DNA of 64,000 nucleotides from an uncultured Acidobacteriota bacterium (GTDB lineage Bacteria > Acidobacteriota > Thermoanaerobaculia > Gp7-AA8): NCBI GenBank assembly GCA_963822445.1, contig CAWGHO010000001.1:1195967-1259966 (forward strand), read 5' to 3'. Positions 46,847-63,209 of this stretch are shown here, piece by piece; position 1 is the stretch's first letter; every line of letters starts with the position of its first letter. A program made the position numbers and the translations under genes. The notes beneath the pieces were generated by a model, which did not search any database, was not told the DNA's origin, and saw only the letters and a list, made by a program, of their open reading frames with translations.

Positions 46847-48208
46847 ATGGAACAGCTAGGCATCTACAAATTGATCAGCCGCCTCGGCGCCGGAGGCATG
46901 GGCGAGGTGTGGCGCGCGGAAGACACGCGGCTGCTGCGGCAGGTTGCGGTGAAGATCCTTCCCGATGCGCTGGCGGCCGATCCGGAGTGGAAAGAACGGT
47001 TCATGCGCGAGGCCCGGACCATCGCGCAGCTCAACCACCCGAACATCGCCACGATCTACAGCATCGAGGAGTACGGCGACACGCTCTTCATCGCCATGGA
47101 GCTGGTCGAGGGCGAGCCGCTTTCGAACCTGATCGCGAATGGGCCGTTGATCCCCGCGGACGCGGTGCGGGTGGCCACCCACGTTTCCGACGCGCTTTCC
47201 GAGGCGCATCACAAAGGCATCGTTCACCGCGACATCAAGCCGGACAACATCCTGGTCTCGACCCGTTTCATCAAGGTCCTCGACTTCGGCATCGCCAAGC
47301 ACATCGGAGGGACTTCGGACGCGAATCTGACCCAAGGCGGGATGGTGGTCGGCACGCCGCACTACATGGCCCCCGAGCAGGCCCTCGGCCGCGCCGTCGA
47401 CACCCGCACGGACATCTTCTCCCTCGGCGTCGTGCTGTACGAGATGCTGTCCGGTCAGAAGCCCTTCACCGGCGACGCCGTCACCGCGATCCTGCTGCAG
47501 ATCGTGATGACCGAGCCGACGGACATCGCCATCGCCGCTGCGGGGATCAGCCCCGCGCTGGCGAGCATCGTCCGCCGCTGCATGAGCAAGCAGCCGGACA
47601 ATCGCTTCCAGGATTGCGACGAGCTGCGCAAGGCGCTCACGAGTGCGCTGCGCGATGAGCGTGGGTCGGCGCGGCAGTCCCAGGTGCCGACGATCTCCGT
47701 TCCCAAGGCCGTGAAGCCGGACGCTGCACCGACGATCGCTCAGGTTCCGCCGGCGGTGGTGCGCAAGGCGACCGAGCCCGGGCGCACGCCGCAGCCGGAG
47801 CCGATTCGCCCGATGGCGACGGCGCCGAAACCACCATCCGCCGCGAATGCGTCAGGCAAGCGTGCGCTGGTCGCGGATGACGATCCGGCGACGCGCTATC
47901 TCCTGAACAGCGTGCTGGCGCGGTACGAGATCGCCGTCGACGAGGCCGAGAACGGCGCGGACGCGGTGAAGTACCTCAAGCAGAACGAGTACACGCTGGT
48001 GTTCCTCGATCTGCTCATGCCGCGCGTCGATGGCTGGGGTGTGATCGACTTCCTGCGCTCCCGTCGCGGCGGCCGTGCGCCGCAGCTGTACGTCGTGACC
48101 GGTGTGCACAATCAGAAGCTGAGCGCCGCCGATCAGGATGTGGTGTCGGGGCTGTTGTACAAGCCGATCGATCTCACTCAGGTGGAGCGTCTGGTTCAGG
48201 CGGTTTAG
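46847..48208 (+). CDS. Ser/Thr protein kinase fused to a C-terminal response-regulator receiver domain
   Basis: Kinase motifs GAGGMGEVWRAED, VAVKIL, HRDIKPDNILV, DFGIAKH. Receiver KRALVADDDPATRYLL…LVFLDLLMPRVDGWG…LYKP. Confidence 0.8.
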   Translation: MEQLGIYKLISRLGAGGMGEVWRAEDTRLLRQVAVKILPDALAADPEWKERFMREARTIAQLNHPNIATIYSIEEYGDTLFIAMELVEGEPLSNLIANGPLIPADAVRVATHVSDALSEAHHKGIVHRDIKPDNILVSTRFIKVLDFGIAKHIGGTSDANLTQGGMVVGTPHYMAPEQALGRAVDTRTDIFSLGVVLYEMLSGQKPFTGDAVTAILLQIVMTEPTDIAIAAAGISPALASIVRRCMSKQPDNRFQDCDELRKALTSALRDERGSARQSQVPTISVPKAVKPDAAPTIAQVPPAVVRKATEPGRTPQPEPIRPMATAPKPPSAANASGKRALVADDDPATRYLLNSVLARYEIAVDEAENGADAVKYLKQNEYTLVFLDLLMPRVDGWGVIDFLRSRRGGRAPQLYVVTGVHNQKLSAADQDVVSGLLYKPIDLTQVERLVQAV

Positions 48209-48535: not shown

Positions 48536-49687
48536 CTAGAGCACGTCTTCCACTTTGTAGTAGAGGTAGTAGTCGGCGCCGTCGCTGCAGAACCGGACAC
48601 GACTCTCGCTCGTGGCCACGACCGGAATCGTGCGCTCGCCGAGCTTGTCGTGCTGATCCGGAAAGTGCCCGAGATCCTCATCCCACAACGTCACGATGAG
48701 CGGCATGGTGAATGGCATGAGCTCCCAATTGATCTGCCAGACATCGCCGTCGTTCATGTCCTTCCTGTTCGGCACCATGATGTTGGGCCCGCCGGCAACG
48801 ACCTTGACGTCGAGACGGCACTCGTCATCGCCGAGCCAGTCCTCGGTCGCGCAGCACACCAGACGCAACAACGTCACCTTGAACACGCGCGGCCTGTCGG
48901 TGAGCACCAGGATCGGATCCGCCGTTGGCGCACATGCCGACTTGGTTCCGTCGCGCAAGACACGCACGCGATACGGACCTGCGAACGGCGCCGTCGCGGG
49001 CAGCGCAACCACAACCTCGGCCTCACCCCAACTGCTGACAGTCAGGTTCTCTGTCTGGTTTCCCTGGCCAGTGAGCGTGACGGTGCCGGTGGCGCTGCCA
49101 AACCCGTTTGGCGAGAGGACGGTCCGAAGGGCGATGTCATCACCCCAGAATGCGACGGTGGGCGTCACCGTGAAGAGCGGACAACTTGGGTTGGTGACGT
49201 CGAAGATCGAGATCGCGCGCGGCGGGCAGGTCTCGTTCGGCGCCTGGATCCAGTACGGCGGGCCGCCTGCGAGCGGAGCGGCCGGCAGCGTGATGCGGAC
49301 GCTGGTCAGCGTCCACGACGTCACCGTTGCCTCGACCCTTGTCACCGGCGCCATCGCATTCGGGCCGGCCAGCAGCCAGACACTGCCAGGCAGCCCGAAA
49401 TTCGGCAAGCCGACGACGTCGAGCGTCACGGCGTCACCCCAGTGCGGGGCCAGCGGACTGACCGTGTAAATCGGGCAGAGCTCACCGCCGAGCTCCAGCA
49501 AATCCATCACGCCGGCGAACGCATCTCGATGCCGGCGCCAGTTCGGAATCACCGTGGCGAGCGTCTTGAGATCTCGATTCGCCCGCTCCAACGCTTTCGA
49601 CTGCTTCGACTTCGACTGCTTCGACCGCTTCGGCGCTGACTTTTTGGATGGTTTCCTGGTGGCTTTCATTTCTGGCCCGCCCTTCAT
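48536..49687 (-). CDS. Hypothetical protein with a Lys/Ser-rich basic N-terminal tail and two IPT-like repeats
   Basis: KATRKPSKKSAPKRSKQSKSKQSK tail. Repeats CP(I/L)(Y/F)TV(S/T)P…WGD…. Confidence 0.5.
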   Translation of the reverse strand: MKGGPEMKATRKPSKKSAPKRSKQSKSKQSKALERANRDLKTLATVIPNWRRHRDAFAGVMDLLELGGELCPIYTVSPLAPHWGDAVTLDVVGLPNFGLPGSVWLLAGPNAMAPVTRVEATVTSWTLTSVRITLPAAPLAGGPPYWIQAPNETCPPRAISIFDVTNPSCPLFTVTPTVAFWGDDIALRTVLSPNGFGSATGTVTLTGQGNQTENLTVSSWGEAEVVVALPATAPFAGPYRVRVLRDGTKSACAPTADPILVLTDRPRVFKVTLLRLVCCATEDWLGDDECRLDVKVVAGGPNIMVPNRKDMNDGDVWQINWELMPFTMPLIVTLWDEDLGHFPDQHDKLGERTIPVVATSESRVRFCSDGADYYLYYKVEDVL

Positions 49688-49797: not shown

Positions 49798-50289
49798 ATG
49801 AACATCACTGAGGTATTGCTCGCCCAACTGGAACGGGAGATTGGCGCAACGCGCAAGGGCCTGGAGCGCGTGCCGGAGGGGAAGCCTGATTGGAAACCGC
49901 ATCCGAAATCGATGCCGCTGGGGTACCTCTCGGCGCTCATCGCAACCATGTTCGGGTGGATCGAGATGATGGTCCAGAGCGACTACCTCGATCTCGCCAG
50001 CGGGAGCAGACCATCGGCAAACACGGGTCCCGAGCGTCTGGCCCTCTTCGACAAATCTGTCGAGCAGGCGCGCCGCGCGCTGACGAACACCACGGACGAT
50101 CACCTCATGAAGCCATGGCAACTCCGGGTCGGAGGGAAGGTCGTGGACGAGAAGCCACGGCACGTCATGATCGCCGATACGTTCTCGCACCTGGCCCATC
50201 ACCGCGGACAGCTGACGGTTTATCTCCGGCTCAACGAGCAGAAGGTTCCTTCGATCTACGGACCGACGGCGGATGAGGGGTGGCAGTAG
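49798..50289 (+). CDS. DinB/YfiT-like (DinB_2) metal-dependent hydrolase-fold protein
   Basis: 163 aa with a four-helix-bundle His triad including HLAHHRGQL. Confidence 0.65.
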   Translation: MNITEVLLAQLEREIGATRKGLERVPEGKPDWKPHPKSMPLGYLSALIATMFGWIEMMVQSDYLDLASGSRPSANTGPERLALFDKSVEQARRALTNTTDDHLMKPWQLRVGGKVVDEKPRHVMIADTFSHLAHHRGQLTVYLRLNEQKVPSIYGPTADEGWQ

Positions 50290-50311: not shown

Positions 50312-51064
50312 TCACGGTTTGACGCAGACCCGTCCCGTGTAATCGATCCGGTGCAGCAACGGCCGCGGGCGCAGCCGGTCCAGATACTCGTCCGTCGCTT
50401 TCCGCGCCCCACGCCAGTAACCGTAATCGTCGACGATCAGCACGCCGCCGCGAACGAGGTGCGGGTAGAGATGCTCGAGCTCGTGCCGCGTCGAGGCGTA
50501 CCAGTCCGTGTCGAGGCGAAGCAGCGCGAGCGCGTCGGGCGCGGATTCCGGCAACGTCGTCATGACGTCCCCTTCCACGAAGCGGAAGCGCTCGAAGGGA
50601 TAGCCGGTCCGGCGGAGATTCGCCGCCACCGCGGCCCGCGACGCAATGCCCCAGAACGGATCGTCAGCACTGCGCGGGTGCTGCTCCAGAATTTCGGCAG
50701 CGGTGCGTCCGCTCATCTCCTGCACGTCCTCGGCGGTCGGCGCGGTCATGCCGCCGAAGGTGTCGTAGAGCCAGAGATTGCGCGTCGTATCGCCGTGGCG
50801 CAGCAGCGTCAGCGCCATCAGCATCAGCGATCCGCCGCGCCACACACCGCATTCGGCGAAATCGCCCGCGAGCCCGTTCTCCGCGACATAGCGCGTCGCC
50901 GACCAGAGCGCGTACATCCGCTCCAGCGAGGTCATGGTGTGCTCGCGGCAGAGCTCGTAAAGCTCGAGGAACTCCGGCTCGAGATCGAACTGGTGGCTCA
51001 CGCGCCGATGATCGTCCGCGGGCCCATTTGTGCGACCTCGGAGCGCGGACTGATGAGGAGCCAT
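50312..51064 (-). CDS. TylF/MycF-family (macrocin-type) SAM-dependent O-methyltransferase
   Basis: DLEPEFLELYELCREHTMTSLERMYALWSATRYV…GDFAECGVWRGGS…LYDTFGGM…DTDWY are characteristic TylF-family blocks. Confidence 0.75.
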   Translation of the reverse strand: MAPHQSALRGRTNGPADDHRRVSHQFDLEPEFLELYELCREHTMTSLERMYALWSATRYVAENGLAGDFAECGVWRGGSLMLMALTLLRHGDTTRNLWLYDTFGGMTAPTAEDVQEMSGRTAAEILEQHPRSADDPFWGIASRAAVAANLRRTGYPFERFRFVEGDVMTTLPESAPDALALLRLDTDWYASTRHELEHLYPHLVRGGVLIVDDYGYWRGARKATDEYLDRLRPRPLLHRIDYTGRVCVKP

Positions 51065-52752
51065 GGACTGGCGACTTCCGACCGGACGATCTCCGGCAGG
51101 ATCGGCGTGAGCATCAACATATTGATCCGTGGATCTCTGGTAAACGGCTGCCGCAGAATCGCGAGCAACTCCGCATGATCGGGATGCGACGGCGAGGTCA
51201 CGTCGGCTTTCGCGAAAACGCTCTCGTCGAACGAGCCGTAATTCGTCAGACGCTGCAGCCAGATGCTGTCGACGCCGAGACGGTCGCCGAGGGCGATGAA
51301 GTCGGGAAGCTCGCGGAAGTTGTCGGCCTGGACGACGAAGTTGATCTGCAGACGGCGGATCTCCCCGGACGCGCGCATCCGCGCGATCAGCTCCAGGTTT
51401 TCCATGAGCACGTTCCACTTGCCGGGGCGGCGCAGCCGCTCGTAGGTCTCGGCCCGGGCGGCGTCGATGGAGATCGAAAGATTGCCGATCATCTCCGGCA
51501 GCTCGGGGAACTCGGCCCATCGCTTCGCGGTGAGCAGCTGCGCGTTCGTGATCAGGAAGACATACAGCCCCGGAAAGTCGTTCCGGTTCAGCGAGGCCAG
51601 GATCTTCCGGTAGTGCGTGCTCGAGAACGCCTCACCGCCGCCGGAGATGTAGGTCATGCCGGTCATTTTGCGCAGGAGCGGGAGCAGCACGCGGTCCGCG
51701 GACTCGAGGTAGACCCGCTGCTCGTCGGGTCCGGCCGTGACGATGCCGGTCCGGCACGACGGGCAGGCCAGGTTGCAGGTCTGGTCGTGATTCATCTCCA
51801 CCATGCCCGGCGACTCTTCGACGACGAGAGTGCGCTCGGCGATGTAGCGGAGCAGAAGGGGATCGGTGACCTCCGTTTTTTTCGGCAGGGAGCGGCCGGC
51901 GATGTACGAGCAGAGCGTGCGGCTGCAGTACTTGAAATCGCCGTCGTGGATGGAGCGCCGGATCTCCACGGCCGCCTCCGAATTCCAGATCGCCTCGGCA
52001 GACGGCGCCTCGACCACGTTGCCGACCGGATAGGGCACCCATGCCGAGCAGGAGCAGGCGAAGGCGTCGCCCCTGAAGCTCGTCGAAAGATGCGTGAACG
52101 GCATCGGGCAGAACCTGTCGCTGAGGTCGTAGGCCGTTTCCGGAACGGCGCGCGCGAGTAACTGCTGCGCGGTCTGACAAACCGCCTGCATCCGCAGTGC
52201 GCGCCGGATGAGCGGCGTTGCTTCGTCCGTTCTGCCGCGATCGAGGAGCAGTTCGGCATGCACCAGCAGCGCTGCACGATCGTCAGGGGCGTGCTCGGCG
52301 ACGGCCGCCGCGACCATCGCGGCATCGCCACCGAACGGCGGTTCCGGCGCAACGTACTCGGCAAGCGCACGAAGGGCAGCCATGCGAACGGAAATGTCGA
52401 CGTAGGACTGCATCCCCGCGGGGCGGAAGCTCGCCTTGGCGATGTGCGAGATCGCGATGAGCGAGTCTAAAAACGCCTTGCGCGCAGTGCCGTCGCCGCT
52501 CGTGACGGAGGACGCCAGCGCGCGGAGCCGCACGGCTTCGAAGGCCAGGAGGCGCATTGCCTGGACCGGCGCGCCGCTGCGTGACTCGAAGTGCATGAAC
52601 GCGCCGCGGATCGTTTTCAGCGCAGCGCGTCCTCTGCGCCAGGCCATCGTGGACGCGACTTCGTACCTGACCCGTCCGGCGATCTCCCTCATCAGGAGCC
52701 GGGTGGGGGCGGGGATGAGCCGGGTCGCGACACGCCGGACGGAGGTGGTCAT
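50998..52752 (-). CDS. Radical SAM enzyme with an N-terminal helical/TPR-like region and a Cys-rich pre-domain (paralogue 2)
   Basis: CNLACPSCR radical SAM triad, preceded by FCPMPF…CSCSAWVP…YCSRTLC. Overlaps the downstream methyltransferase start by 67 bp. Confidence 0.7.
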   Translation of the reverse strand: MTTSVRRVATRLIPAPTRLLMREIAGRVRYEVASTMAWRRGRAALKTIRGAFMHFESRSGAPVQAMRLLAFEAVRLRALASSVTSGDGTARKAFLDSLIAISHIAKASFRPAGMQSYVDISVRMAALRALAEYVAPEPPFGGDAAMVAAAVAEHAPDDRAALLVHAELLLDRGRTDEATPLIRRALRMQAVCQTAQQLLARAVPETAYDLSDRFCPMPFTHLSTSFRGDAFACSCSAWVPYPVGNVVEAPSAEAIWNSEAAVEIRRSIHDGDFKYCSRTLCSYIAGRSLPKKTEVTDPLLLRYIAERTLVVEESPGMVEMNHDQTCNLACPSCRTGIVTAGPDEQRVYLESADRVLLPLLRKMTGMTYISGGGEAFSSTHYRKILASLNRNDFPGLYVFLITNAQLLTAKRWAEFPELPEMIGNLSISIDAARAETYERLRRPGKWNVLMENLELIARMRASGEIRRLQINFVVQADNFRELPDFIALGDRLGVDSIWLQRLTNYGSFDESVFAKADVTSPSHPDHAELLAILRQPFTRDPRINMLMLTPILPEIVRSEVASPWLLISPRSEVAQMGPRTIIGA

Positions 52753-54551
52753 GCGCTGCGAGCCTCGAGCTGCGTGAGGAACGCCGTCATGACCCGCGGA
52801 TTCCGCATGGCCGGGTCGTGCAGGATGGCTTGAAACTCCTCGTGATCCGGATGTGCCGGCGAGGTGATGTCTCTCGATGCGAAGACTTCCGCTGGTTCGT
52901 GTCCGAAGCTGTAGTACTTCTGAAAAACGACGCCGGCGCCGAGCTCCTCGCCGAGCTGGACGAAGGCCGGCATCTCCCGGAAGTTGTCGCTCTGCACGAC
53001 GAAGTTGATCAGGAACCGATACGGCTGCTCGGTGTCGAGATGCAGATCGGTGCTGACGGATCGCGTCCCGTCAGCGAGCGAGTTGCGGTTGAACGTCCCG
53101 GTGCGATGCAGCTCCCCCATCAGGTCGAGGTTCTCGCGAATGACTTCCCAGCGTCCGGGGCGGCGCACGTTCTCGTAGGTCGGTTTCGTTGCCGCATCGA
53201 CCGAGACCCGCAGCTCGACAATCTTTTCGGCGAGATGCGGCATCGCCTTCCACGTCTGCGGGGTGAGGCCCAGGCCGTTGGTCAGCATGAACAGACGCAC
53301 GCCGTCGAACTCCGGCGCGCGCAGAGCTTCGAGGATCGACCGGTAATGGCGGCTGGCGAACGGATCGCCCCAGGACGTCATCTGCACGGCGGTCTGCCGG
53401 TTGCGCAGCATCGGCAGAATGACCCGGTCGCGGCCGCGATCCAGCCGCTCGCTCTCCTCTTTGTTGGCCATCATCAGATCGTTGCGACAGGTCGGGCAGG
53501 CGAGGTTGCACGAGCTGTCGTGGCCGAGGGCGACGATGCGTGGGCCGTCTTCAACGACGGTCTCGCGATTGTCGATGATGCGGCGCAGACGCGGCGCCGT
53601 GATTTCTTCGGCGCGTGGCAGCAGGCCGTTCGTGATGAAGGGGCACAGCGTCCGGCTGCAGTAGGAGAAATCGCCGTCGAGCACGGACCGCCGCACTTCC
53701 TGCATGCCGGGCGAGTTCCAGACGGCATCCGCCGATTCGCCTTCCAGCATGTTGCCGGTGACGGCCGGCACCCACGCGGCGCAATCGCAGGCGTAGGTCG
53801 AGCCCATCACCTGCTCGGTCGTGCCTTTTGCTTCGTTCCATTGCAGGCCCTGCCCGCTGACGAGGATTTCGAACGGCCGCGGGCAGAAACGGCCGCGAAG
53901 ATCGGCCAGGCCGTTCTCTTCCGTCGGAGTGAGCGTTGCGCCGGCGTTCCGCCGTGCGCGCAATGCGTCCATGAGGAGTTTCTGCGACGTGGGACAGGCG
54001 GACATGATGTCGAGTGCGCGACGCGCGTACGTGGCCGCGTCGTCATGCCGTACGGCGTCCAGCATGCGCCGGCCGGCGGCGAGGAGCGCTTCGCGTCCGC
54101 TTCCGCCCGCGTTCGCAAGGCGCATCGCAACATCCATCTCGTCCAGCGACAGCTCCTCCGCGATCGACCGCAGAAGAGCGTCGAAAACGGCCAGGGTCGC
54201 ATTGATGTCGCAGTACGCGCGGACCCTGGTGCCTTTCGTGGTGATCGCGGCGCAGAACGTCAGCTCGTCGAGTGCGTGAGAAAGCTGGTACGCGAACCGG
54301 CTCTCGTCGAGCACCGCTGGCCCCTTTTCGAGCCCGGCCAGGGCCGCCGACAGTCGCGGCGCGACCCTTTCGAGAACTTCGCTGACGTGCGCGGGGCCGC
54401 GTTCACTGACCAGCAGCGATGCGACGTTCTTCTTCAGCCACGACCCCGACCGGCGCCGCCATGCGGGCGTCCGGAGCAGACGCGTACCACGCACAGCCAG
54501 GTTCCAATATTGGCGCATGAACGACGAATCATACCGTGCGCGTGCGCTCAT
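52749..54551 (-). CDS. Radical SAM enzyme, paralogue 1 of the downstream gene
   Basis: CNLACPTCR triad plus the same Cys-rich pre-domain (FCPRPF…CDCAAWVP…YCSRTLC). Co-linear similarity to 50998..52752 across the whole catalytic region. ATGA-type overlap with it. Confidence 0.7.
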   Translation of the reverse strand: MSARARYDSSFMRQYWNLAVRGTRLLRTPAWRRRSGSWLKKNVASLLVSERGPAHVSEVLERVAPRLSAALAGLEKGPAVLDESRFAYQLSHALDELTFCAAITTKGTRVRAYCDINATLAVFDALLRSIAEELSLDEMDVAMRLANAGGSGREALLAAGRRMLDAVRHDDAATYARRALDIMSACPTSQKLLMDALRARRNAGATLTPTEENGLADLRGRFCPRPFEILVSGQGLQWNEAKGTTEQVMGSTYACDCAAWVPAVTGNMLEGESADAVWNSPGMQEVRRSVLDGDFSYCSRTLCPFITNGLLPRAEEITAPRLRRIIDNRETVVEDGPRIVALGHDSSCNLACPTCRNDLMMANKEESERLDRGRDRVILPMLRNRQTAVQMTSWGDPFASRHYRSILEALRAPEFDGVRLFMLTNGLGLTPQTWKAMPHLAEKIVELRVSVDAATKPTYENVRRPGRWEVIRENLDLMGELHRTGTFNRNSLADGTRSVSTDLHLDTEQPYRFLINFVVQSDNFREMPAFVQLGEELGAGVVFQKYYSFGHEPAEVFASRDITSPAHPDHEEFQAILHDPAMRNPRVMTAFLTQLEARSA

Positions 54552-55135
54552 GCGACCCGCCTGAGGTAGCCGTCGACGTTCCAGGTCACGTTGTGCCCGT
54601 AGTAATCGCAGAACGTGCGATCGATCTCGTATCGCCCGCCTGAGCGCGCGAGAAACTCATGGATCGCGCGAAGCGGCCCGCCGTCGTATGTCTCTGCAAC
54701 GCGCATGGCCGTGAGGATGCCGTCCTCGATCACGATGTACTCGCCCGGCCGCAGCCAGCGATCGAAGAAATCGAGCACGGCCGTGGTGGTGCCGGCGAGA
54801 TGGCTGGAGTCCTCGACCACGAGAAGCGGCCGCGCGAACGACTCCATCACATCCGGAGTCAGCACGTCGCCGAGACGTTGTGCATCGCCTCGAAGAAATC
54901 GCGCGGATGGATGCGACACGTCTGTCGGCGTCTCGAGGTCGATCGATAGCACCTGCAGGCCAGGCCGCTGGTCGGCGAACCAGAGCGCGCTCCCGCCGGC
55001 GTGCGTGCCGATCTCGATGAGCGTTGCCGGCCGCGCGCGCTCGAGCAGCATCGCGTAGAGCGCGAGATCGAACGGATTCTTCAGCATCGGAACGCCGCGG
55101 TAGCGGTAGCTCATCGTGCCCTGCTGAATCTTCAT
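54548..55135 (-). CDS. CmcI / 'cephalosporin hydroxylase'-family class I methyltransferase
   Basis: NPFDLALYAMLLERARPATLIEIGTHAGGSALWFA…LVVEDSSH matches the CmcI-family methyltransferase fold. Start set at MKIQQ; the upstream part of the tool's ORF is low-complexity. Confidence 0.6.
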   Translation of the reverse strand: MKIQQGTMSYRYRGVPMLKNPFDLALYAMLLERARPATLIEIGTHAGGSALWFADQRPGLQVLSIDLETPTDVSHPSARFLRGDAQRLGDVLTPDVMESFARPLLVVEDSSHLAGTTTAVLDFFDRWLRPGEYIVIEDGILTAMRVAETYDGGPLRAIHEFLARSGGRYEIDRTFCDYYGHNVTWNVDGYLRRVA

Positions 55136-55158
55136 CAGCAGCTCGTAGGGAATGTCGG

Positions 55159-56601
55159 TCACGACGGCAGCATCTCCAGGAAATGCGCTTTCGCCGAGAC
55201 GAGCAGATCGCGCTTTCGGCCGCTGAAGCGCGCGGCGGCGCGATCCATCAGCGCGCTGCGCTCGTCGACGGTGAGGCTGGCGACACTGTGGCGACGCAGC
55301 ACCGACGGCGGAATCGCCTTCGTGTTCAGGAACACCGCGGAGTTCACCTCCGTGTCGCAGACATACTCGAAGTAATCGGCGTACAGCTCCATCGTCACGT
55401 GCAGCCAGGCCACCCAGTGATGGTAGAGATAGTCCTGCTGCACGACCAGCGAGCGGCCGGGGATGAGGTGCGGGAAGAACTGCCAGGTCACCCAGTCCGA
55501 GACCGTCCAGTGCTTGGCGATGTCGATGAAGAGAATCTCGATCGGCCCGCCGGTCCACTGCTGATCCATCACATCGCCGGCGTGCACTTCCACGAGGTCG
55601 GCGTACGGAGCGATGTTGCTGTCGAACTGCTCGCGGACGCTCGTTCCCGCCGCGACGTGCTCCGGAAAGTACACGCCTCGCATCCACTCCTCGACCTCGA
55701 ACCGGTCGTACGAGTGGATCGGCTTACCGCTTGCGGGGCGGGTCCAGCGGCGATTGCGACGCAGGCCCTCGGCGAGGGCGACTGTCGATCCGCCGAGGAA
55801 CGCGCCGGCGTCGACGATCGCGCCGGCGCCGGTGTAGACGTCCTGGGCCAGGTAATTCAGCAGCCGAAGCTCGGCGGGAACCAGCATCGTCGGCACGTTC
55901 GTGCAGGCCGCCGGCAGCGGCTGCCGGCGCCACTTCGCGCCGATGCTCTCGGTCGTGTGCGGAACGCGGAAGACGGCCTGCACCGTGTTCGCGTTCTTCA
56001 GCACCTTCGGCTCGGTGCGGTTCCAGAGGCGCGTCATCAGGAAAGCGATCAGCCACGCCGCGGCCTTGCGCAGCCTGCCGCCTTTTTCGCGCGCGTACTC
56101 CCAGAGGATCCAGCCGAGCGTCTGCGCGATCGAGTGCACCGGCAGCAGCTCGACGACTTCCAGCCCGGCGTTGCTCCCGAGCTGCGCCAATCCGTCGGCG
56201 GTGTAGCGCCGGTAATCGTCGGGCGAGGCGTGATACGGCTGCAGGAACGGCACCGTCACGACGAGGTACCCGCCCTTGCGCACCACGCGCGCGAGCTCCT
56301 CGATCCCGCGCTCGGCATCGAAGACGTGCTCGAGGACCGCGTTGCAAAGCGCGGAGTCGAAGCTCCCGTCGGCGAACGGCATCGACTCGATCGGCCCGAG
56401 GATCACGTCTGGCTCCGTCGAGGCGATGTCGTAGCGGGTCAGCTCCGTCACGCCGTGCGCGCGCAGGAAGGCCGTGATGTCGCGCATGCCGCAGCCCGCG
56501 TTCAGCATCCGCCCGGAGAGATAGCGCGCGACCGGCTTCAGCTCCTGTTCGAGAGATTGAAAGTGGATCGGGCTGACGAAGGAAAGCTTCAAGAAGGGCA
56601 C
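55159..56601 (-). CDS. Class I SAM-dependent methyltransferase (Methyltransf_11-like) with a large C-terminal domain of unknown function
   Basis: LNAGCGMRDIT (motif I) and FDSALCNAVLEHV (motif II region). The roughly 250-aa C-terminal extension has a second Rossmann-like GxG (IVDAGAFLGGST). Confidence 0.65.
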   Translation of the reverse strand: MPFLKLSFVSPIHFQSLEQELKPVARYLSGRMLNAGCGMRDITAFLRAHGVTELTRYDIASTEPDVILGPIESMPFADGSFDSALCNAVLEHVFDAERGIEELARVVRKGGYLVVTVPFLQPYHASPDDYRRYTADGLAQLGSNAGLEVVELLPVHSIAQTLGWILWEYAREKGGRLRKAAAWLIAFLMTRLWNRTEPKVLKNANTVQAVFRVPHTTESIGAKWRRQPLPAACTNVPTMLVPAELRLLNYLAQDVYTGAGAIVDAGAFLGGSTVALAEGLRRNRRWTRPASGKPIHSYDRFEVEEWMRGVYFPEHVAAGTSVREQFDSNIAPYADLVEVHAGDVMDQQWTGGPIEILFIDIAKHWTVSDWVTWQFFPHLIPGRSLVVQQDYLYHHWVAWLHVTMELYADYFEYVCDTEVNSAVFLNTKAIPPSVLRRHSVASLTVDERSALMDRAAARFSGRKRDLLVSAKAHFLEMLPS

Positions 56602-56607
56602 CGGCGA

Positions 56608-57819
56608 TTATGGCATGTGGCGGATGACCGCCGAAATGTCGGCCAGGCCGACGTAATGGCGCGGCACGGAGACGGTGAGATGCAGCACGTGGACGCGCGT
56701 GTCGAGGACGCTGATCGCGCCGCCCGCCAGCTCGAAGGCCGAGACGTCGATGAAGACGTCGCCCACGCCGACGTCCAGGCGGAACGACACCTCGACGCGG
56801 CGCCGCTCCCCCGCGAACGCGGGCACTGCCGCGACGCCGAGCATGACCGTGGTGGTCATGTAGATGCGCGTTCCTTCTTTCGTCGAGCAGGCGAAGCCGA
56901 ACTGAGGCGCTTCGACGTCGCGGGAGAAGTCGACGTCGAACACGAGCCGCGCCGTCTCGCCGGCGGTGAACGACGTCGCTTCCTGCGAGCCGTTGCGGTA
57001 GGCCACGACGTGCGAGATCGTCGCGCCGCCCAGACCATACCGGGGCTCGCCGCCGATGGCCGTCGTCCGCTCAGGTTGCTCCGGCGCGGAGAAGAAAAGC
57101 TCGTAGTAACGGTCGACGGCGCGGCCCGGCTCGCCGTCGAAGGCGATGCGGCCATGGTCGAGCACCAGCGCGCGATCGCAGATCGCGGTCAGGCCATGCA
57201 TCACGTGGGTGACCAGCAGGATGGTCGTGCCGCGTTCGCGCATCTCGCGCAAACGGCCGTAGCACTTCTGCTGGAATCGCGCATCGCCAACAGCCAGCAC
57301 TTCGTCGATCAGCAGAATGTCAGGCTCCTCGGCCGCCGCGCACGCAAACGCGAGCCGCAGGAACATGCCCGACGAGTACGTGCGCACCGGACGATCGAAA
57401 AACTCGCCGAGCTCGGCGAAGGCCTCCACCTCTCGCTCGCGAGCCAGCGGATCGCCCTCATCACGCGCGATGAGCCGATGATAGAAACGCGCGTTCTCGC
57501 GGCCGGTCAGCTCGGGAAGAAAGCTCCCGCCGAGGTCGAGCAGCGCCGTGACGCGGCCATCCACGGTGACGCGACCCGACGATGGATCCAGCAGTCCCGC
57601 GACCAGATGCAACAGCGTCGATTTGCCGACGCCGTTGGCGCCGATGACGGCCACGCTCTCCCCGCGGCTCACCGAGAAACTGACGTCGTCGAGCACCGGG
57701 ACCGCGACGTCGTGCCGCCGCCCGAACGGCCAGAAGATGTCGAACAGGCGATGAATCGGCGAGCGGTAATGGCGGAACTGCTTCGACACCTGGTCGAACT
57801 GCAACGCGATCCCGGTCAT
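56608..57819 (-). CDS. Wzt-type ABC transporter ATP-binding protein with a C-terminal glycan-binding domain
   Basis: Walker A GANGVGKST, signature SSGMFLRLAF, Walker B ILLIDE, and a ~150-aa C-terminal beta-sandwich extension. Start at MTGIAL with an ATGA overlap. Confidence 0.8.
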   Translation of the reverse strand: MTGIALQFDQVSKQFRHYRSPIHRLFDIFWPFGRRHDVAVPVLDDVSFSVSRGESVAVIGANGVGKSTLLHLVAGLLDPSSGRVTVDGRVTALLDLGGSFLPELTGRENARFYHRLIARDEGDPLAREREVEAFAELGEFFDRPVRTYSSGMFLRLAFACAAAEEPDILLIDEVLAVGDARFQQKCYGRLREMRERGTTILLVTHVMHGLTAICDRALVLDHGRIAFDGEPGRAVDRYYELFFSAPEQPERTTAIGGEPRYGLGGATISHVVAYRNGSQEATSFTAGETARLVFDVDFSRDVEAPQFGFACSTKEGTRIYMTTTVMLGVAAVPAFAGERRRVEVSFRLDVGVGDVFIDVSAFELAGGAISVLDTRVHVLHLTVSVPRHYVGLADISAVIRHMP

Positions 57820-60641
57820 CGCCGCACCCATGTGCGCAGCCGTCTGAGCGCCCATCGCGCCGCGCGCAGCGCGAACGTGAAGCCGGAGTCGACCGCCGCG
57901 ACGGCGAGTGTCTTCCCCCATCCGCTCGGCGAGTGACGTGCTGCGGCGTCGTAGCCGGCGGCGAGGATGTAGTAGCGATCGTTGGCCGACGTTTCACCGT
58001 ATGGCGCGATGCGCGCGGGAAGCGAGCTGCGGACGTCGATGGAAACCGTTTGCGGCCGTTCGACGACCGGCTCGGGATAGGGCCAGATGCGCTCGCCGCG
58101 CGTGACGCAGAAGTCTGCGAGGCCGAGGAAGGGAGATTCGATCGCCAGCGCGCGGCCTTCAATCGCACGTTGAAACATCTCGCGACGCACGATGAGCGCG
58201 CCGCCGGACGTGACGCCATCGAGAAGACTCACCGCGACGCTGCCGCCGAGCGGCGGAACGACACGGATCCCGAAGTTGCCGGTGATGCTGCCCGCGGGCA
58301 CGAGGCCATCGACGTGCGCGCGGCCGAGGGCGTCGAGCATTGGCGTGAATGCTTCGGGGAGCAGCGCCACGCCGGAGTGAATCAGCAACACCGCATCCTG
58401 GGCGATGCCCGCGAGCTCCGTCGCGATGGCGTCGTTCTCGGCCGAGAGGAGATCGATGTTCTCGTGGCGCAAGGGCTCGCCGCCGCGGTTGAGGATGATC
58501 ACGCGATGAATCTGCGGGCAGGCCCACAGCGACTCGAGCGTGCGCGCGAGCGGGGCGCCGGCGGGATGATCGACGATCGCCGTGACGCTCGAGGCAGGTG
58601 ATTCCGCATCGACCGCGCCCGGAAGGAGCTCCTGCCAGTGGGCGTGCATCTCCTTCCAGCTCCGTCGCGTCTCTTCCATTGACACAGCTGGACGCGCGAT
58701 CCATCCGCCGTGCTCGATCGCACCCTCGAGCGCTTTGCGCAGCGCTTCGGTCGTGTGTTCAAAGAGCACGTGCTCGCGGTCAGCCTTCTCCACCAGCTCG
58801 GGGATGCCGCCGGTGCGTGCCGCGAGAAAGGGGATTCCCGCGCCGAGAGTCTCGTAAATCGTGCAGGGCGAGTTGTCGAACGGCGACGGCATGACCGCGA
58901 GCTTCTCCCCTTCCCGCAGGTACTGCAGCGCCTCGGGCTGCCCGAGATCCGTGATCGTCCGAACGGGGAAGCTCCACGCCGCGGCGCGTTTCGCGATGTA
59001 CTCGAGGCTGGGCATGCCGGCGCAGATCTGCGGCTTGCCGAGGAATGTGACGGTGATCCCGCGTCGCGCGAGCTCATCGGCCATCGCGTTCACGGCATTG
59101 CAGAAGAGGCGCAGACCTTTGCGTTCTTCGAGGCGTCCGAAGAAAACGATTTCCTTCGGCGGCGCGGTGCGGCCACGCTCAACATCAGACGCGGGCGCTC
59201 CCGGCATCACGTACTGCTGGATGTAGGTCTGCCGCGGCAGCTCGAAACCGCGCGAGGTGACCCAGTCCAGCAGGTAGCGGCTCGGACTCCAGAGCACATC
59301 GGCACAGGCGAGGCTGAGCCGCTCCGCGTAATCGAATGCCGCGCAGGTACGCGTTGCCGGCAGGAAGTGGTTGAGGTCGAAAACCCATCGCGACGGGCTG
59401 TGAAGCGCGACCACGAGCAGCGAATCACCGAACGCGAGGCCGAGCGCCTTCGCGGCGAGGGTTAGGCTTCCATCACCGCAACAGTCATTGAAGTGGATGA
59501 CGTCGAAGCGGCGCTCGCGCAGCCGCTGGTAGACGAGCCAGGGCGTGACGAAGCCGATTTCCTTGAGCGGCCCGTCGATCGTCTTCGTCTCCTCGATCGA
59601 CAGCGCGATCAGCTCGATGCCCCGCGCGGCGTAATGCTTCACCCACGGCGCCAGCCGCACCTCCGGCTGCCAGATCGCGCCTGTGTACAGCACCGTCACC
59701 GCGAAACCGTCGGCCCCGAGCATCTCCGCGAGACCGGTCATCGACGTACCGACACCGCCGTTGTTGAACGGTCCGATCAGCTCGTTCGTGACGATGCAGA
59801 TGGAAGGCCGGGAGGGCGCGTCGCGGTAGGTGCGATCGCGCAGCGACGGGTAATCAGCCCGCGCGCGCAACTGCACGTCGATTCCCGAGATCGGCAGGCC
59901 GGCCACATGCGGCGGAAGCTGCCAGGCCACGTCGGGATCGGGCACGTGCGCGACCGGTGTGACGTCGCCGCGCCAGGCCATGGCCATGATCTGCGCCGTT
60001 TGATACACGACGACGTTGAAGCCTTTTTCCTTCAGGAATCGCAGCGCCGCCGTCACCGCCGGCGAAGCGAGATCGTGAAAAACGAACGCACAATCCTCGG
60101 CTGCATACGACAGCGCGGCCGCGGTATCGCGCAGCGGCGCGGGCGATTCGTGATCGCCGTCGATGAAGAACAGGCTCCAGCGCTGGTTCAACTCCGCGAT
60201 GGACTCCGGGCTGCGGCCGCGCACGAGGTTCACCCGCTCGGCGACGCCGCAGCCGCGCAGTGAGTCTTCCACCGAGGCGCGGATGATCGGGTCTTCGTGC
60301 GCGGGATCGATCACGTCGAGCTGAACGCCGGCCATGGCAAGGTGGCACGTCGACCATCCGAGCCAGCTCCCGATCTCCAGCGCGCGTTTGCCGGCGAACT
60401 GCAGGGCGATGTTGTGCAGCAGGACCGCTTCATCGCGGTTGAGGAAGCCCATGAGCGGGAAGCGTTCGTCGGCATACCAGCGGTGGGGCACGTCGCGGCG
60501 AAGGTACTTCCAGGGATGGTGCAGCGGATCGCCCGGCCGCATGTGCGGGAAGGCGTCGTCGAGCCGCACGACGCTCAGCCCCGGGGAGATGTAGTCGTAG
60601 AGCGACCAGGTCGCCTCGTCGGTCGGCGTGGTTAGAGGCAT
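57816..60641 (-). CDS. Fused methyltransferase (Methyltransf_24-like) - GT4 glycosyltransferase - GT2-like glycosyltransferase
   Basis: Start at MPLTTPTDE; the tool's 214-aa N-terminal extension is an alternate-frame overlap of wzm. Methyltransferase ALEIGSWLGWST…FIDGDH. GT4 GGVGTSMTG…FFGRLEERKG…GIPFLAARTGGIPE. C-terminal GT2-like region. Confidence 0.7.
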   Translation of the reverse strand: MPLTTPTDEATWSLYDYISPGLSVVRLDDAFPHMRPGDPLHHPWKYLRRDVPHRWYADERFPLMGFLNRDEAVLLHNIALQFAGKRALEIGSWLGWSTCHLAMAGVQLDVIDPAHEDPIIRASVEDSLRGCGVAERVNLVRGRSPESIAELNQRWSLFFIDGDHESPAPLRDTAAALSYAAEDCAFVFHDLASPAVTAALRFLKEKGFNVVVYQTAQIMAMAWRGDVTPVAHVPDPDVAWQLPPHVAGLPISGIDVQLRARADYPSLRDRTYRDAPSRPSICIVTNELIGPFNNGGVGTSMTGLAEMLGADGFAVTVLYTGAIWQPEVRLAPWVKHYAARGIELIALSIEETKTIDGPLKEIGFVTPWLVYQRLRERRFDVIHFNDCCGDGSLTLAAKALGLAFGDSLLVVALHSPSRWVFDLNHFLPATRTCAAFDYAERLSLACADVLWSPSRYLLDWVTSRGFELPRQTYIQQYVMPGAPASDVERGRTAPPKEIVFFGRLEERKGLRLFCNAVNAMADELARRGITVTFLGKPQICAGMPSLEYIAKRAAAWSFPVRTITDLGQPEALQYLREGEKLAVMPSPFDNSPCTIYETLGAGIPFLAARTGGIPELVEKADREHVLFEHTTEALRKALEGAIEHGGWIARPAVSMEETRRSWKEMHAHWQELLPGAVDAESPASSVTAIVDHPAGAPLARTLESLWACPQIHRVIILNRGGEPLRHENIDLLSAENDAIATELAGIAQDAVLLIHSGVALLPEAFTPMLDALGRAHVDGLVPAGSITGNFGIRVVPPLGGSVAVSLLDGVTSGGALIVRREMFQRAIEGRALAIESPFLGLADFCVTRGERIWPYPEPVVERPQTVSIDVRSSLPARIAPYGETSANDRYYILAAGYDAAARHSPSGWGKTLAVAAVDSGFTFALRAARWALRRLRTWVRR

Positions 60642-61417
60642 TCCCAGAAATGAGGCCGGAGTCGACGGAAAAGGGCCGCGCCGATGAGCATCAAGCCGCC
60701 TGCGATCGTCCAGAAGGCAACTGCTTCGGCGACGGTCGGCGCGGCGAACGCCTGTGGCAGCAGCGCATGACGGTATCCGGAGACGACGTACGCGGCGGGG
60801 TTGAGAGCCAGCAGCGACTGTCCGCGCGGCGGCAGCGCCGTCGGCGCCCACGCGATCGGTGTCACCCAGAACCAGACGTTGAGAAAGGAGGGAAGGACCT
60901 GCTGCACGTCCCGCACGATGACGGCCAGGCCGGAGAGCATCATCCCGATTCCATGCGCGAGCACGACCGCGCAAGCATAGAAGTAAGGAAGGAGCAGCAG
61001 TCCGGGGAAGCTCGCGTAGCCGGACGAGACCGACGCCGCGAGCGTGAGCGCCAGCAGCACGACGTGCGGCAGCGACTGCACGACGATCGAGCTCGCGGAG
61101 ATGATCTGCAACGGAAAGCGGACGCGCTTGACGAGATGGCGGTGACCGATGATCGATCCCACGCCGCTGCCGATGCCCGTGGAGATGAGCACCCAGGGCA
61201 CATACGCCGCGGCGAAGCCGAGGACGTAGGGCGCTTTGCCGAGCGGGAGACGAAGGCCGAGGGAAAAAATGGCCGTGAAGCACAGCAGCGGGATGAGCGG
61301 CGTGAGCACCGCCCAGGCCATGCCTGCCGCCGTGCCCGCGTACGTACGCCGAAGCTCCTGACGCGCAAGCGACGCCAGCAGATGCCGATTCGGCCAGAGG
61401 CCAGCCCGCTCGCGCAT
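60632..61417 (-). CDS. Wzm/KpsM-type ABC-2 transporter permease
   Basis: 262 aa from MRERAGLWPNRHLL with six TM helices and an ABC-2 family signature. Confidence 0.75.
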   Translation of the reverse strand: MRERAGLWPNRHLLASLARQELRRTYAGTAAGMAWAVLTPLIPLLCFTAIFSLGLRLPLGKAPYVLGFAAAYVPWVLISTGIGSGVGSIIGHRHLVKRVRFPLQIISASSIVVQSLPHVVLLALTLAASVSSGYASFPGLLLLPYFYACAVVLAHGIGMMLSGLAVIVRDVQQVLPSFLNVWFWVTPIAWAPTALPPRGQSLLALNPAAYVVSGYRHALLPQAFAAPTVAEAVAFWTIAGGLMLIGAALFRRLRPHFWECL

Positions 61418-61486: not shown

Positions 61487-62467
61487 ATGCAGGTGATGGC
61501 ACTCCTTAACGAAGGACAAAACGCGACGTCCCTGCCGCCGCTGCCGAAGCGGTTCCGGCACCACGTGCTCTTTTCGTACGCCTCGGCGGACGCGGAGTAC
61601 GTACGGGCCGTTCGCGCCGCCTTGCCCAAGGAAGTCGACGCGTTCGACTACGCGGAAGGGGGCATGTGGGGCGAACAGCTCGTGAAAGGGCTCGAGCACC
61701 GCTACAAGAATGAAGCGCCGTTCTGCGTCGTCTTCATTTCGAAGGCCTATCTCGCCAGTCCGTGGACGCAGAAAGAGCTCGGCATCGTCCAGCGCGTCGC
61801 CAAACGCAAGCCCGGATACATGTTGCCGGTCGTGCTCGACGGCACGATCGTCCCCGAGATCGAAGGGATCGTCTGGCTCGACAAGACCCTGACTCCCGAG
61901 CAGCTCGCGGCGCGTCTCGTCGCGAAAATTCGCGAGCCGCCGCCGAAGCCCTGGTGGTTTTACGTTTCCACCGAAGTCAAAGTCGCGATTGCGGCGGTGC
62001 TGCTCGCGCTGATCCTCTTCGCGCGTCCGGCGGTCAACTACTTCCGCCCCTCGCGCACGACGATCCGGTCGGTGAGCGCGAACGCGCAGGAAATCACCGC
62101 GCGCCTCGTGAACAGCGGCCCGAAGAGTTCCACCGTGGTCGGCCAGCGATTGAAGTTCGGTGCTCTGCCGATCGAGGACGCGGTGCTGCATCTCGACAAG
62201 AAGGCGTCCGCGACGATCGCCCCCGGCGGGCACGACCTGAAGCTGAAAGCGCTGACGCTCCTGACCAAGTGCGACGCCAACGGCATCCTCCCGAACAACG
62301 ACATGGTTGCGGCCCTCCTCGGTCAGCAACCCGTCACGCTTGAAGTCGATGTCCGGGAGTCCGACGACCCTCCCGGCCAGACGACGCGGAGGATCGCGAC
62401 GATCCCTGCCGCGCGTCTCGAACCGTTCGTCAGAAGGTTGGCACCGAATGATCTCGATGATTGCTAA
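61487..62467 (+). CDS. TIR-domain protein with a central TM helix and a C-terminal (extracytoplasmic?) domain
   Basis: HHVLFSYASADAEYVRAVRAAL…APFCVVFISKAYLASPWTQKELGIV fits the bacterial TIR fold. TM VKVAIAAVLLALILFA. Confidence 0.7.
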   Translation: MQVMALLNEGQNATSLPPLPKRFRHHVLFSYASADAEYVRAVRAALPKEVDAFDYAEGGMWGEQLVKGLEHRYKNEAPFCVVFISKAYLASPWTQKELGIVQRVAKRKPGYMLPVVLDGTIVPEIEGIVWLDKTLTPEQLAARLVAKIREPPPKPWWFYVSTEVKVAIAAVLLALILFARPAVNYFRPSRTTIRSVSANAQEITARLVNSGPKSSTVVGQRLKFGALPIEDAVLHLDKKASATIAPGGHDLKLKALTLLTKCDANGILPNNDMVAALLGQQPVTLEVDVRESDDPPGQTTRRIATIPAARLEPFVRRLAPNDLDDC

Positions 62468-63209
62468 GGCCCTGGTTTGCGTTCTTCTCGCCGCGACCGC
62501 GGCACAAGCCCAGATCACCACGTCCCAGGTGAATGTGTTCGTCAGGGGCAAGCGTTGCAGCGAACTGACGAACGTCTACCTCGTCATCAACGGCAAAGAC
62601 CTCGACAGCGGCTGGGTCAAGCTCGAGCCGGCCGGGCCCTGCCGGTGGAAGGCCGACCTCGGCAGCGGCACGATCTCCACGAGCAACGCGCGCTTCAGCC
62701 TCCGCGGCGACTTCGCGCGCTCCGATTGCCAACGGGCCGCCCCGAACGAGGAGCAGCTCACCGCCAACCTCGAGTTTGCCTGCTGCGTCGAGGGGCCGCT
62801 CCGCAACGTGAGCGTGAAGATCGACCCTCCGATGCCGGTCAGTTACGTCCGCGACGTGCGGCCCTTCCCCGGCGCCCGGGTCCCCGGGATCAAATGCCTG
62901 GAAAGAGCGACCTTCAGTGAAGGACAAGGCTCGATCGGCCATGCGCAGTTTTCCGGCGAAGACGTCTATCTCCATCTCGGCCCGTTCGACAGGAAACAGC
63001 CGATGCTCGGGCTGCTGCTCGATGACGTCGTCAACGACGATGGTCCGCTGGTGCTAACGCGCGAAGGCGTGGTCTACCGGCTGGCCGTGCAGCGTGCGAA
63101 AGGAAAAGCGCGGAGCGCGCCGGCGGTGTCGTCGAACGCGATCCTGATCGACAGCAAGAAACTGGGCACGCTGAAGCTCGAGCGGGCCGAGATCGAGGTG
63201 ATGAAATGA
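62448..63209 (+). CDS. Secreted hypothetical protein (253 aa)
   Basis: Signal peptide MISMIAKALVCVLLAATAAQAQ. Start overlaps the TIR gene by 20 bp. Confidence 0.55.
   Translation: MISMIAKALVCVLLAATAAQAQITTSQVNVFVRGKRCSELTNVYLVINGKDLDSGWVKLEPAGPCRWKADLGSGTISTSNARFSLRGDFARSDCQRAAPNEEQLTANLEFACCVEGPLRNVSVKIDPPMPVSYVRDVRPFPGARVPGIKCLERATFSEGQGSIGHAQFSGEDVYLHLGPFDRKQPMLGLLLDDVVNDDGPLVLTREGVVYRLAVQRAKGKARSAPAVSSNAILIDSKKLGTLKLERAEIEVMK

Follow-up and report, generated by a model that had tools for sequence, protein, structure and literature searches.

A recurrent Wzm/Wzt-type glycan operon of Acidobacteriota encoding two paralogous radical-SAM proteins with a predicted N-terminal auxiliary-cluster domain

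Excerpts from two papers (PMC9445017, PMC6379404) describe pathways that depend on an ATP-binding cassette (ABC) transporter as exporting a completed, lipid-linked chain, and the excerpt from the former states that Wzt-type carbohydrate-binding domains (CBDs) recognise a chemically modified chain terminus. Here we describe an operon of this type found at 50312-61417, on the minus strand, of a 64,000-nucleotide stretch of DNA (the window) from an uncultured Acidobacteriota bacterium (assembly GCA_963822445.1, contig CAWGHO010000001.1). In addition to the Wzm/Wzt exporter, the operon codes for five methyltransferase domains and for two paralogous radical S-adenosylmethionine (SAM) proteins, rSAM1 and rSAM2. 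We consider it probable that the two are sugar-tailoring radical enzymes of an O-antigen-type, ABC-export pathway, in which a coupled operon makes an O-methylated, capped glycan and the pair acts on the lipid-linked glycan or its terminus. The pathway type is already known, and an N-terminal position of the twitch domain in a radical-SAM protein is known only as the annotation label of a sister family.

The closest described systems are the Escherichia coli O8/O9a locus (wzm-wzt-wbdD-wbdABC), in which WbdD is a terminator of the kinase and methyltransferase type with a coiled coil, and the Aquifex aeolicus WzmWzt transporter with its CBD. The operon shares with these systems a Wzm permease, a Wzt with a C-terminal CBD, GT4-type polymerising glycosyltransferases (GTs) and one or more SAM-dependent methyltransferases that could cap the non-reducing end. 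Unlike them, it has five methyltransferase domains instead of one, and no WbdD-like kinase or coiled-coil terminator was recognised in it. It differs further in having a module of the GT-A fold that apparently lacks a DxD motif, in embedding two radical-SAM enzymes, and in that the genes for the initiating transferase, the ligase and the precursors are unlinked to it. For the radical-SAM proteins, the nearest precedent by description is that of AviX12 (avilamycin), HygY (hygromycin B) and BtrN (butirosin), reportedly sugar epimerases or dehydrogenases of natural-product pathways. These enzymes provide a case in which a radical-SAM protein with an auxiliary cluster acts on a C-H bond of a sugar or cyclitol, including that of an assembled oligosaccharide, beside O-methyltransferases. 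Their auxiliary domain, however, is C-terminal, and they belong to antibiotic clusters and not to the synthesis of an exported polymer.

The operon and its counterparts in related genomes

Gene starts were set by inspecting every candidate start codon together with the junctions. With these models, eight closely packed genes lie on the minus strand in the order that the original prediction had given, and their domain content (Pfam, NCBIfam) follows its list. They are wzm (61417..60632; 261 aa, ATG start), for the ABC-2 type permease of a glycan exporter; MT-GT (60641..57816; 941 aa), for a methyltransferase-GT4-GT-A protein, whose start overlaps the wzm stop by 10 nt; wzt (57819..56608; 403 aa), for an ABC ATPase with a C-terminal CBD, joined to the upstream gene by an ATGA overlap; dMT (56601..55159; 480 aa, GTG start), for a double methyltransferase; a gene for a CmcI-like O-methyltransferase (55162..54548; 204 aa, GTG start, GTGA overlap); rSAM1 (54551..52749; 600 aa), with ATGA overlaps at both ends; rSAM2 (52752..50998; 584 aa); and, at the end of the operon, a gene for a TylF-like O-methyltransferase (51001..50312; 229 aa, GTG start), in GTGA overlap with the rSAM2 stop. 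The prediction had spoken of several overlapping junctions; six of the seven do, by 10 nt in one case and by the 4 nt of an ATGA or GTGA sequence in five, and the remaining one is a 6-nt gap. Our models for MT-GT, rSAM1 and rSAM2 are borne out by public gene calls with exactly these lengths (941, 600 and 584 aa), and the lengths that follow from the GTG starts of the CmcI-like and TylF-like genes are matched by those of their orthologues (204 aa and 229-233 aa, respectively). We conclude that the eight genes are translationally coupled in a single operon, whose type is the ABC-transporter-dependent one (Wzm/Wzt with CBD). A scan of 49.5-62 kb with promoter and terminator consensus sequences gave no signal exceeding that of shuffled controls.

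The exporter part is a standard ABC-transporter-dependent system. Wzm matches the Pfam family ABC2_membrane (PF01061; 1.9e-14, 54.2 bits against a cutoff of 26.9) and, weakly, the galactan Wzm/RfbD model of NCBIfam. Wzt matches ABC_tran with 73.8 bits and, at about 56638-57045, Wzt_C (PF14524) with 63.6 bits against a cutoff of 30.4; its closest solved relative is the A. aeolicus WzmWzt with CBD (8dku/7k2t; E 5e-55 over residues 10-326).

The arrangement had been called unusual. It is, on the contrary, a recurrent cassette and not a one-off, and is better described as uncharacterised but common in Acidobacteriota. We found at least 368 homologues of rSAM2 at E<=1e-5, all of them unnamed or generically named and mainly from metagenome-assembled genomes (MAGs) of Thermoanaerobaculia, Blastocatellia and Pyrinomonadaceae. 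To collect related loci, we looked up genomic contexts, scanned a single genome for each GTDB species and then ran tblastn with the window proteins; this gave 27 unique loci, from MAGs of the same three groups, in which the rSAM2 orthologue has at least 50% identity. The components were counted in the 22 of these loci that have at least 12 kb of sequence. A dMT gene was present in 21, rSAM1 and MT-GT in 20 each, Wzt_C in 15, Wzm and TylF in 14 each, and CmcI, which is an accessory part of the cassette, in 13. The rSAM1 gene always lies directly upstream of rSAM2, often overlapping it. In 20-21 of the 22 loci, the pair adjoins the GT, methyltransferase and Wzm/Wzt genes; 12 loci have it on the strand opposite to MT-GT and 8 on that of MT-GT itself, and the genes that flank the cassette vary between genomes. 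Because the pair is kept with MT-GT and dMT through strand inversion and with differing flanks, its linkage to glycan genes is functional, beyond inherited gene order. Moreover, a verrucomicrobial locus (L032) has the order Wzm-Wzt-GT8-double MT24-rSAM, and thus this type of radical-SAM protein is associated with Wzm/Wzt and MT24-type methyltransferases in more than one phylum and beside more than one family of glycosyltransferases.

Most of the related cassettes have a stand-alone GT4 gene of about 360 aa between wzt and dMT (for example L001 14606-15685 and L081 4350-5447). No tblastn match to it was found in the window, where the junction is at 56601-56610, and it is also missing from several Blastocatellia loci; the version of the cassette in the window should therefore make a simpler repeat unit. 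In six loci (L005, L009, L019, L025, L026 and L079), tblastn showed that MT-GT, GT4, dMT and the rSAM pair are kept, with no wzt between them. The exporter of these loci may be encoded elsewhere or replaced.

The radical-SAM pair and its family

The two radical-SAM proteins had been described as paralogous, and they are 36% identical over their full length, with all cysteines aligned. Invariance was judged in two alignments, one of 15 and one of 96 sequences, in which both paralogue groups are represented, and residues are given in rSAM2 numbering unless stated otherwise. The CX3CX2C triad is invariant (C326, C330 and C333 in rSAM2, at 51754-51777; C348, C352 and C355 in rSAM1) and forms part of the core motif, CNLACPSC in rSAM2 and CNLACPTC in rSAM1, which is invariant in the 96 sequences. 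Outside the core of rSAM2, six other cysteines are invariant: C215, C233, C235, C276 and C281 belong to a Cys-rich domain (51883-52113) about 40 residues upstream of the core, and C192 lies in the preceding helix. In rSAM1, a twitch-like domain at about 53616-53891 has C222, C255, C257, C298 and C303. The motifs FCPxPF, CxCxAWVP, YCSRTLC and CNLACPxCR, which had been pointed out before, are present in both paralogues and are invariant across the 96 homologues. Other invariant residues are D323, H523, H526 and many arginines (R159, R184, R265, R266, R278, R334, R441 and R442). No conserved cysteine was found after the barrel in the alignments of rSAM1 and rSAM2.

The C215-X12-G-X4-C233 segment of rSAM2 fits the SPASM signature CX9-15GX4C; in rSAM1, a 14-residue insertion in the signature hairpin extends the spacing to X26. 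In Pfam searches, residues 215-277 of rSAM2 matched SPASM (PF13186) with 28.6 bits against a cutoff of 21.5. Against Radical_SAM (PF04055; cutoff of 29.5 bits), rSAM2 scored 35.5 bits over residues 321-458, whereas rSAM1 scored 29.0, 0.5 bit short. The best NCBIfam match of both proteins was NF033640, N_Twi_rSAM (81.4 bits for rSAM2 and 45.8 for rSAM1). They have the domain order of this family, and the alignment spans positions 1-307 of the 398 in the model, covering twitch and core; both, however, fall far below the cutoff of 170 and belong to a large sister family that has no curated model. The original prediction had raised an auxiliary-cluster domain ahead of the core as a possibility. 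With the SPASM profile match in rSAM2 and the alignment to NF033640 over twitch and core, such a domain is now well supported at the level of sequence, and the domain order is permuted relative to that of canonical SPASM/twitch enzymes. Indeed, rSAM1 and rSAM2 share with BtrN, anSME, PqqE, SuiB, SkfB and MoaA a CX3CX2C core and a Cys-rich, SPASM-matching domain, but this domain is C-terminal in those enzymes and N-terminal here. Furthermore, a TPR-like (tetratricopeptide-repeat-like) helical domain of about 200 residues precedes the Cys domain of rSAM2, the sequence similarity to every solved member is negligible, and the genomic context is that of a glycan and not of a peptide or cofactor.

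Residues 1-205 of rSAM2 are helical and TPR-like, with sub-threshold matches to TPR models, and rSAM1 also has a helical N-domain ahead of its twitch-like domain. Within this part of rSAM2, Y117, R159, R184, C192 and Q196 (about 52165-52404) are invariant across both paralogue groups. That several residues of the N-domain, including a cysteine, are invariant suggests that the domain may contribute to the active site or to the environment of a cluster, beyond serving as a mere docking module.

A confident AlphaFold (AF2) model of rSAM2 (pLDDT, a per-residue confidence score, of 88.8; pTM, its whole-model counterpart, of 0.86) has a helical N-domain, a small Cys domain, a partial TIM barrel and C-terminal helices. 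When the model was compared with the PDB using Foldseek, viperin came first (E 4e-5), followed by DesII and BlsE (E 4e-5 to 3e-4 for the three together) and then by SuiB, PqqE, MoaA, SkfB and anSME; the TPR part matched SPY/OGT. Searches of PDB sequences with rSAM2 and with its 96-sequence profile gave only marginal matches to viperin, at the top (E 0.02), and to TPR proteins.

We then looked at how far the combination of twitch and core extends. A phmmer search with this segment of 1.84 billion cluster representatives (clusters at 50% identity) returned 8015 proteins at E<=1e-3, of which 2615 reached E<=1e-10 and 995 reached E<=1e-30. Among the matches listed, lengths run from 163 aa (the shortest are fragments) up to 1565 aa, and both stand-alone forms of about 350 aa and tandem repeats of the module are represented. 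Ten of the stand-alone relatives scored 60-83 bits on NF033640. Since the stand-alone forms and the window proteins are all below the cutoff of that model, the whole family is outside any curated NCBIfam model. Three of the proteins, P0132 (1565 aa), P0123 (962 aa) and P0237 (1331 aa), have two to four stretches matching the query, which suggests that they carry tandem copies of the module in one polypeptide. A Pfam scan of 19 long members revealed fusions to GT2 domains in two (P0179 and P0237), to sulfotransferases in four (P0143, P0168, P0223 and P0224), to a TylF O-methyltransferase in one (P0220) and to TPR repeats in two. The fusion partner in P0220 is thus of the same kind as the product of the gene that overlaps rSAM2 in the window.

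The family also occurs in a cultured organism, Azospirillum sp. TSO5, in which it could be studied. There, a 14-kb locus (L084; LGQY01000019.1, 349-14766) codes for four twitch-first radical-SAM modules, distributed over a 526-aa protein, a 998-aa tandem (SPASM-rSAM)x2 protein and a 967-aa rSAM-TylF fusion (P0391). The neighbouring genes code for GmhA-like and HldE-like proteins of heptose-nucleotide synthesis, for two nucleoside diphosphate (NDP)-sugar epimerases or dehydratases and for a carbamoyltransferase. More distant, single-copy relatives in Alphaproteobacteria have mixed surroundings. The one in Rhodoblastus acidophilus has as neighbours a GH26 protein, a 1696-aa multi-GT4 protein and sugar oxidoreductases; one in Sphingomonas sp. 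MMS24-J45 has an MsbA-like exporter and an acyltransferase_3 protein, and one in Sphingomonas echinoides a GH2 glycosidase.

A proposed role for the pair and its alternatives

In the pathway that we propose, the MT-GT4-GT-A protein would act on the cytoplasmic side of the membrane and polymerise a simple glycan attached to a lipid carrier. The five SAM-dependent methyltransferase domains would O-methylate its sugars, probably adding a terminal methyl cap, and the C-terminal domain of Wzt would recognise the finished, capped chain, which Wzm/Wzt would export. rSAM1 and rSAM2 would probably be made in equal amounts and act as a hetero-complex; we infer this complex, as well as the number of clusters, the stage of the substrate and the type of reaction, whereas the genes present, their coupling, the identities of the domains, the conserved linkage and the fusions were all observed. 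In each protein, the CX3CX2C [4Fe-4S]/SAM site would abstract a hydrogen from a sugar carbon, and an auxiliary Fe-S cluster in the N-terminal twitch-like domain would deal with the radical or electron so formed. Most probably, a residue of the lipid-linked glycan, or its terminus, would be epimerised, oxidised to a keto-sugar or dehydrated. This step may create or re-orient hydroxyls that the adjacent O-methyltransferases would then cap. We favour the lipid-linked glycan or its terminus as the stage of action because of the TylF and sulfotransferase fusions, the TPR-like domain and the relatives with tandem modules. Known sugar O-methyltransferases of the TylF, NovP and CmcI families act after glycosyl transfer.

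Several observations weigh against this proposal. About one third of the acidobacterial loci have no adjacent Wzm/Wzt, and the neighbours of the more distant relatives in Methylosinus, Oleispirillum and Thiomargarita are unrelated to glycans. The idea that all members of the family reside in glycan loci was rejected on account of these three. In a Pfam scan, the genes of the 64-kb window included none for an initiating phosphoglycosyl transferase, an acceptor ligase (WaaL or equivalent) or the synthesis of sugar nucleotides; the genes for the initiating transferase and the ligase may lie elsewhere in the genome. In the literature searched, no paper linked radical-SAM proteins to Wzm/Wzt, to O-antigen clusters or to polysaccharide assembly, and none described an enzyme with an N-terminal twitch domain; the radical-SAM genes mentioned in two matching Xanthomonas papers are unrelated. 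Finally, rSAM2 bears a likeness to viperin, DesII and BlsE that is weak (TM score of 0.55 on the target, Foldseek E about 1e-5), too weak for a reaction to be transferred to it. Although the three are the best Foldseek matches of the rSAM2 core, the identity is 13-19% and every model cutoff is missed; the viperin models, viperin_w_prok of NCBIfam (NF038283) and pVip of PADLOC, gave 33.8 and 32.9 bits, both below the cutoff (180 bits). Moreover, these proteins are without N-terminal helical or twitch domains and are not found as a paralogue pair.

That likeness nevertheless bears on the main rival, in which the pair acts before glycosyl transfer and converts a housekeeping nucleotide sugar (GDP-mannose, dTDP-rhamnose or UDP-glucose, for instance) into an unusual donor by radical dehydration, deamination-like elimination or epimerisation. 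Viperin (on CTP) and DesII (on a TDP-sugar) act on nucleotide-linked sugars, and we know of no auxiliary-cluster domain in either. BlsE, the third of the closest solved cores, acts on cytosylglucuronic acid (PMC3715490). The absence of sugar-nucleotide genes from the cassette and from the whole window in the Pfam scan also fits this rival, under which the cassette would be self-sufficient although it has no classical precursor genes, as do the existence of GT2 fusions in the family and the GmhA/HldE-like and NDP-sugar epimerase/dehydratase genes that adjoin the Azospirillum relative. The many invariant arginines would suit a substrate that bears a pyrophosphate, but a pyrophosphate-binding site would fit an undecaprenyl-PP-glycan equally well. 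The fusions to TylF-type and sulfotransferase domains, on the other hand, point to tailoring after glycosylation, and the TPR-like N-domain, together with the relatives that have several modules in tandem, suggests action in an assembly complex or at the level of the polymer. On balance, we regard action at the nucleotide-sugar stage as the less likely.

Much less probable still is that the proteins are peptide or protein maturases, of the anSME kind or of that acting on ribosomally synthesised peptides modified after translation (RiPPs), either unrelated to the glycan or maturing an enzyme of the cassette. It is true that most characterised SPASM/twitch enzymes modify peptides or proteins, that the TPR-like domain could bind a protein, and that NCBIfam models for sactipeptide, PQQ, mycofactocin and metalloenzyme maturases match weakly; all these scores, however, are far below the cutoffs. 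A sulfatase adjoins one related locus (L082), but only this once. The 4-nt overlaps of the rSAM genes with their neighbours leave no space for a precursor gene and place the pair within the operon and not in a separate peptide pathway, the circumstance that the original prediction had named as able to overturn it, and neither protein has a Pfam match to PqqD or to a RiPP recognition element (RRE) at E<=0.01. Nor was a conserved small gene, or a protease or exporter of the RiPP type, found beside the pair in the 27 loci, where GT, methyltransferase and Wzm/Wzt genes are conserved instead. With no precursor gene, no RRE domain and no conserved peptide genes, we rejected this explanation. The least probable of all, in our view, is that the pair serves some unrelated function in the chemistry of small molecules or lipids, such as the modification of membrane lipids, and is a passenger here, co-located by chance or for co-regulation. 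The loci without adjacent exporter genes and the distant relatives in non-glycan neighbourhoods would agree with it. Against it stand the persistence of the linkage to MT-GT and dMT, the translational coupling of the pair to the CmcI-like and TylF-like genes in the window, and the physical fusion of family members to GT2, sulfotransferase and TylF domains; also, no tetraether or lipid-synthase radical-SAM enzyme appeared among the Foldseek matches.

Acidobacteriota rank with the most abundant bacteria of soil and, to our knowledge, their surface glycans are almost unstudied. The cassette is a recurrent module, compact and self-contained, for the export of a polymer that would be heavily methylated and hence probably hydrophobic. 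Through it, a radical-SAM family (about 1000 clusters at E<=1e-30) with a putative, N-terminally permuted auxiliary Fe-S domain can be approached from a defined genomic setting; time and again, members of this family are fused or linked to glycosyltransferases, O-methyltransferases and sulfotransferases. More tentatively, the twitch-first module could be a widespread, unrecognised class of carbohydrate-tailoring radical enzymes, of which a hetero-pair here would modify a sugar of a surface polysaccharide by radical chemistry whose enzymology is undescribed in O-antigen-type pathways, for example by epimerising, deoxygenating or oxidising it at the level of the polymer, coupled to capping with O-methyl groups. 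The sugar residue or chain terminus made in this way would then be of a new kind. Assigning the reaction would bring radical chemistry to bacterial polysaccharide assembly and permit the annotation of thousands of genes.

Other modules of the operon and the surrounding window

MT-GT, with its gene sited between wzm and wzt, brings together a methyltransferase (Methyltransf_24, at about 60072-60380), a GT4 module (about 58710-59759, with Glyco_trans_4_4 and Glyco_trans_1_4 as its N and C halves; Pfam) and a domain of the GT-A fold. We found 291 homologues of the same architecture in Thermoanaerobaculia, Blastocatellia and Pyrinomonadaceae. The C-terminal domain, of about 290 aa, had been called a GT2 module. 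It has no Pfam match even at E=10, a GT2 Pfam domain was found in none of the 120 MT-GT homologues listed, and a profile built from orthologues matched nothing among PDB sequences. The assignment to GT-A glycosyltransferases nevertheless stood at the level of the fold: in an AlphaFold (AF2) model made with a 19-sequence alignment (mean pLDDT of 75.9, with averages of 86-97 in most 10-residue blocks of residues 31-140), the modelled region at about 58053-58586 had GT-A glycosyltransferases as all of its top 50 Foldseek matches in the PDB. These include WrtF (9e-9, the best), SpsA, B4GALNT1, K4CP, TarP/TarS and BcsA. In place of a DxD motif, the strand where it would be expected, in a register set from secondary structure only, ends in LLIHSG, of which S and G are invariant and H nearly so. 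Possibly, the domain is an atypical GT-A, metal-independent or non-catalytic. By description, the protein resembles WsaE of the Geobacillus stearothermophilus S-layer glycan, reportedly a methyltransferase fused to rhamnosyltransferase domains in an ABC-transporter-dependent pathway that uses a methylated terminus. Both have an O-methyltransferase domain and two glycosyltransferase modules in a single polypeptide, but MT-GT combines MT24, GT4 and a GT-A domain apparently without DxD.

As to the methyltransferases, four modules had been predicted. They are indeed spread over four proteins, but the count is five domains: MT24 in MT-GT, MT11 and MT24 in dMT, and one each in the CmcI-like and TylF-like proteins. 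In dMT, Pfam matched Methyltransf_11 at residues 34-115 (52.3 bits) and Methyltransf_24 at residues 264-386 (26.5 bits against a cutoff of 26.3), and the protein is a candidate chain terminator or capping enzyme. The CmcI-like protein matches RMNT_CmcI of Pfam with 70.2 bits and a rhamnosyl O-methyltransferase model of NCBIfam with 46.9 bits, below its cutoff of 400. The TylF-like protein, of the TylF/MycF/NovP type, matches TylF of Pfam with 142.6 bits (1.8e-41).

The operon is flanked by a divergent gene for a TIR-domain protein (61487-62467, plus strand; PF13676, 50 bits), 70 bp from wzm, and by a convergent DinB-family gene (49798-50289, plus strand). The TIR protein has weak PADLOC matches to candidate defence families (PDC-S66, TIR-NLR). 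Since a TIR neighbour is not conserved in the related loci, the gene is probably unrelated to the glycan operon. A defence-system reading of the locus, prompted by this neighbour and by a 'GT4-conflict' Pfam match, was rejected: PADLOC gave only a generic ABC ATPase and the weak pVip match, and the TIR gene is not conserved. An open reading frame (ORF) that follows the TIR gene (62307-63209, plus strand) has no Pfam match. On the other side, about 600 bp downstream of the operon and across the DinB gene, a 383-aa ORF with good codon bias and a Lys/Ser-rich N-terminus (48536-49687, minus strand) gave no match in Pfam, NCBIfam or PADLOC.

Farther away, a dense signalling region at 37374-48208 codes for a Ser/Thr kinase-TPR protein, a 1232-aa Reg_prop/Y_Y_Y-GGDEF protein, a hybrid PAS histidine kinase with Hpt and a Ser/Thr kinase fused to a receiver domain. 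The G+C content of the window is about 65%, and falls to 0.59-0.61 at 30000-36000, where an IS481-family transposase gene (31033-31968, minus strand) and several ORFs without a Pfam match are found; this part may be an inserted island. At 4625-10240, on the minus strand, a gene codes for a 1871-aa sensor histidine kinase with 14-15 consecutive HAMP domains, a poly-HAMP array, followed by GAF and HisKA domains.

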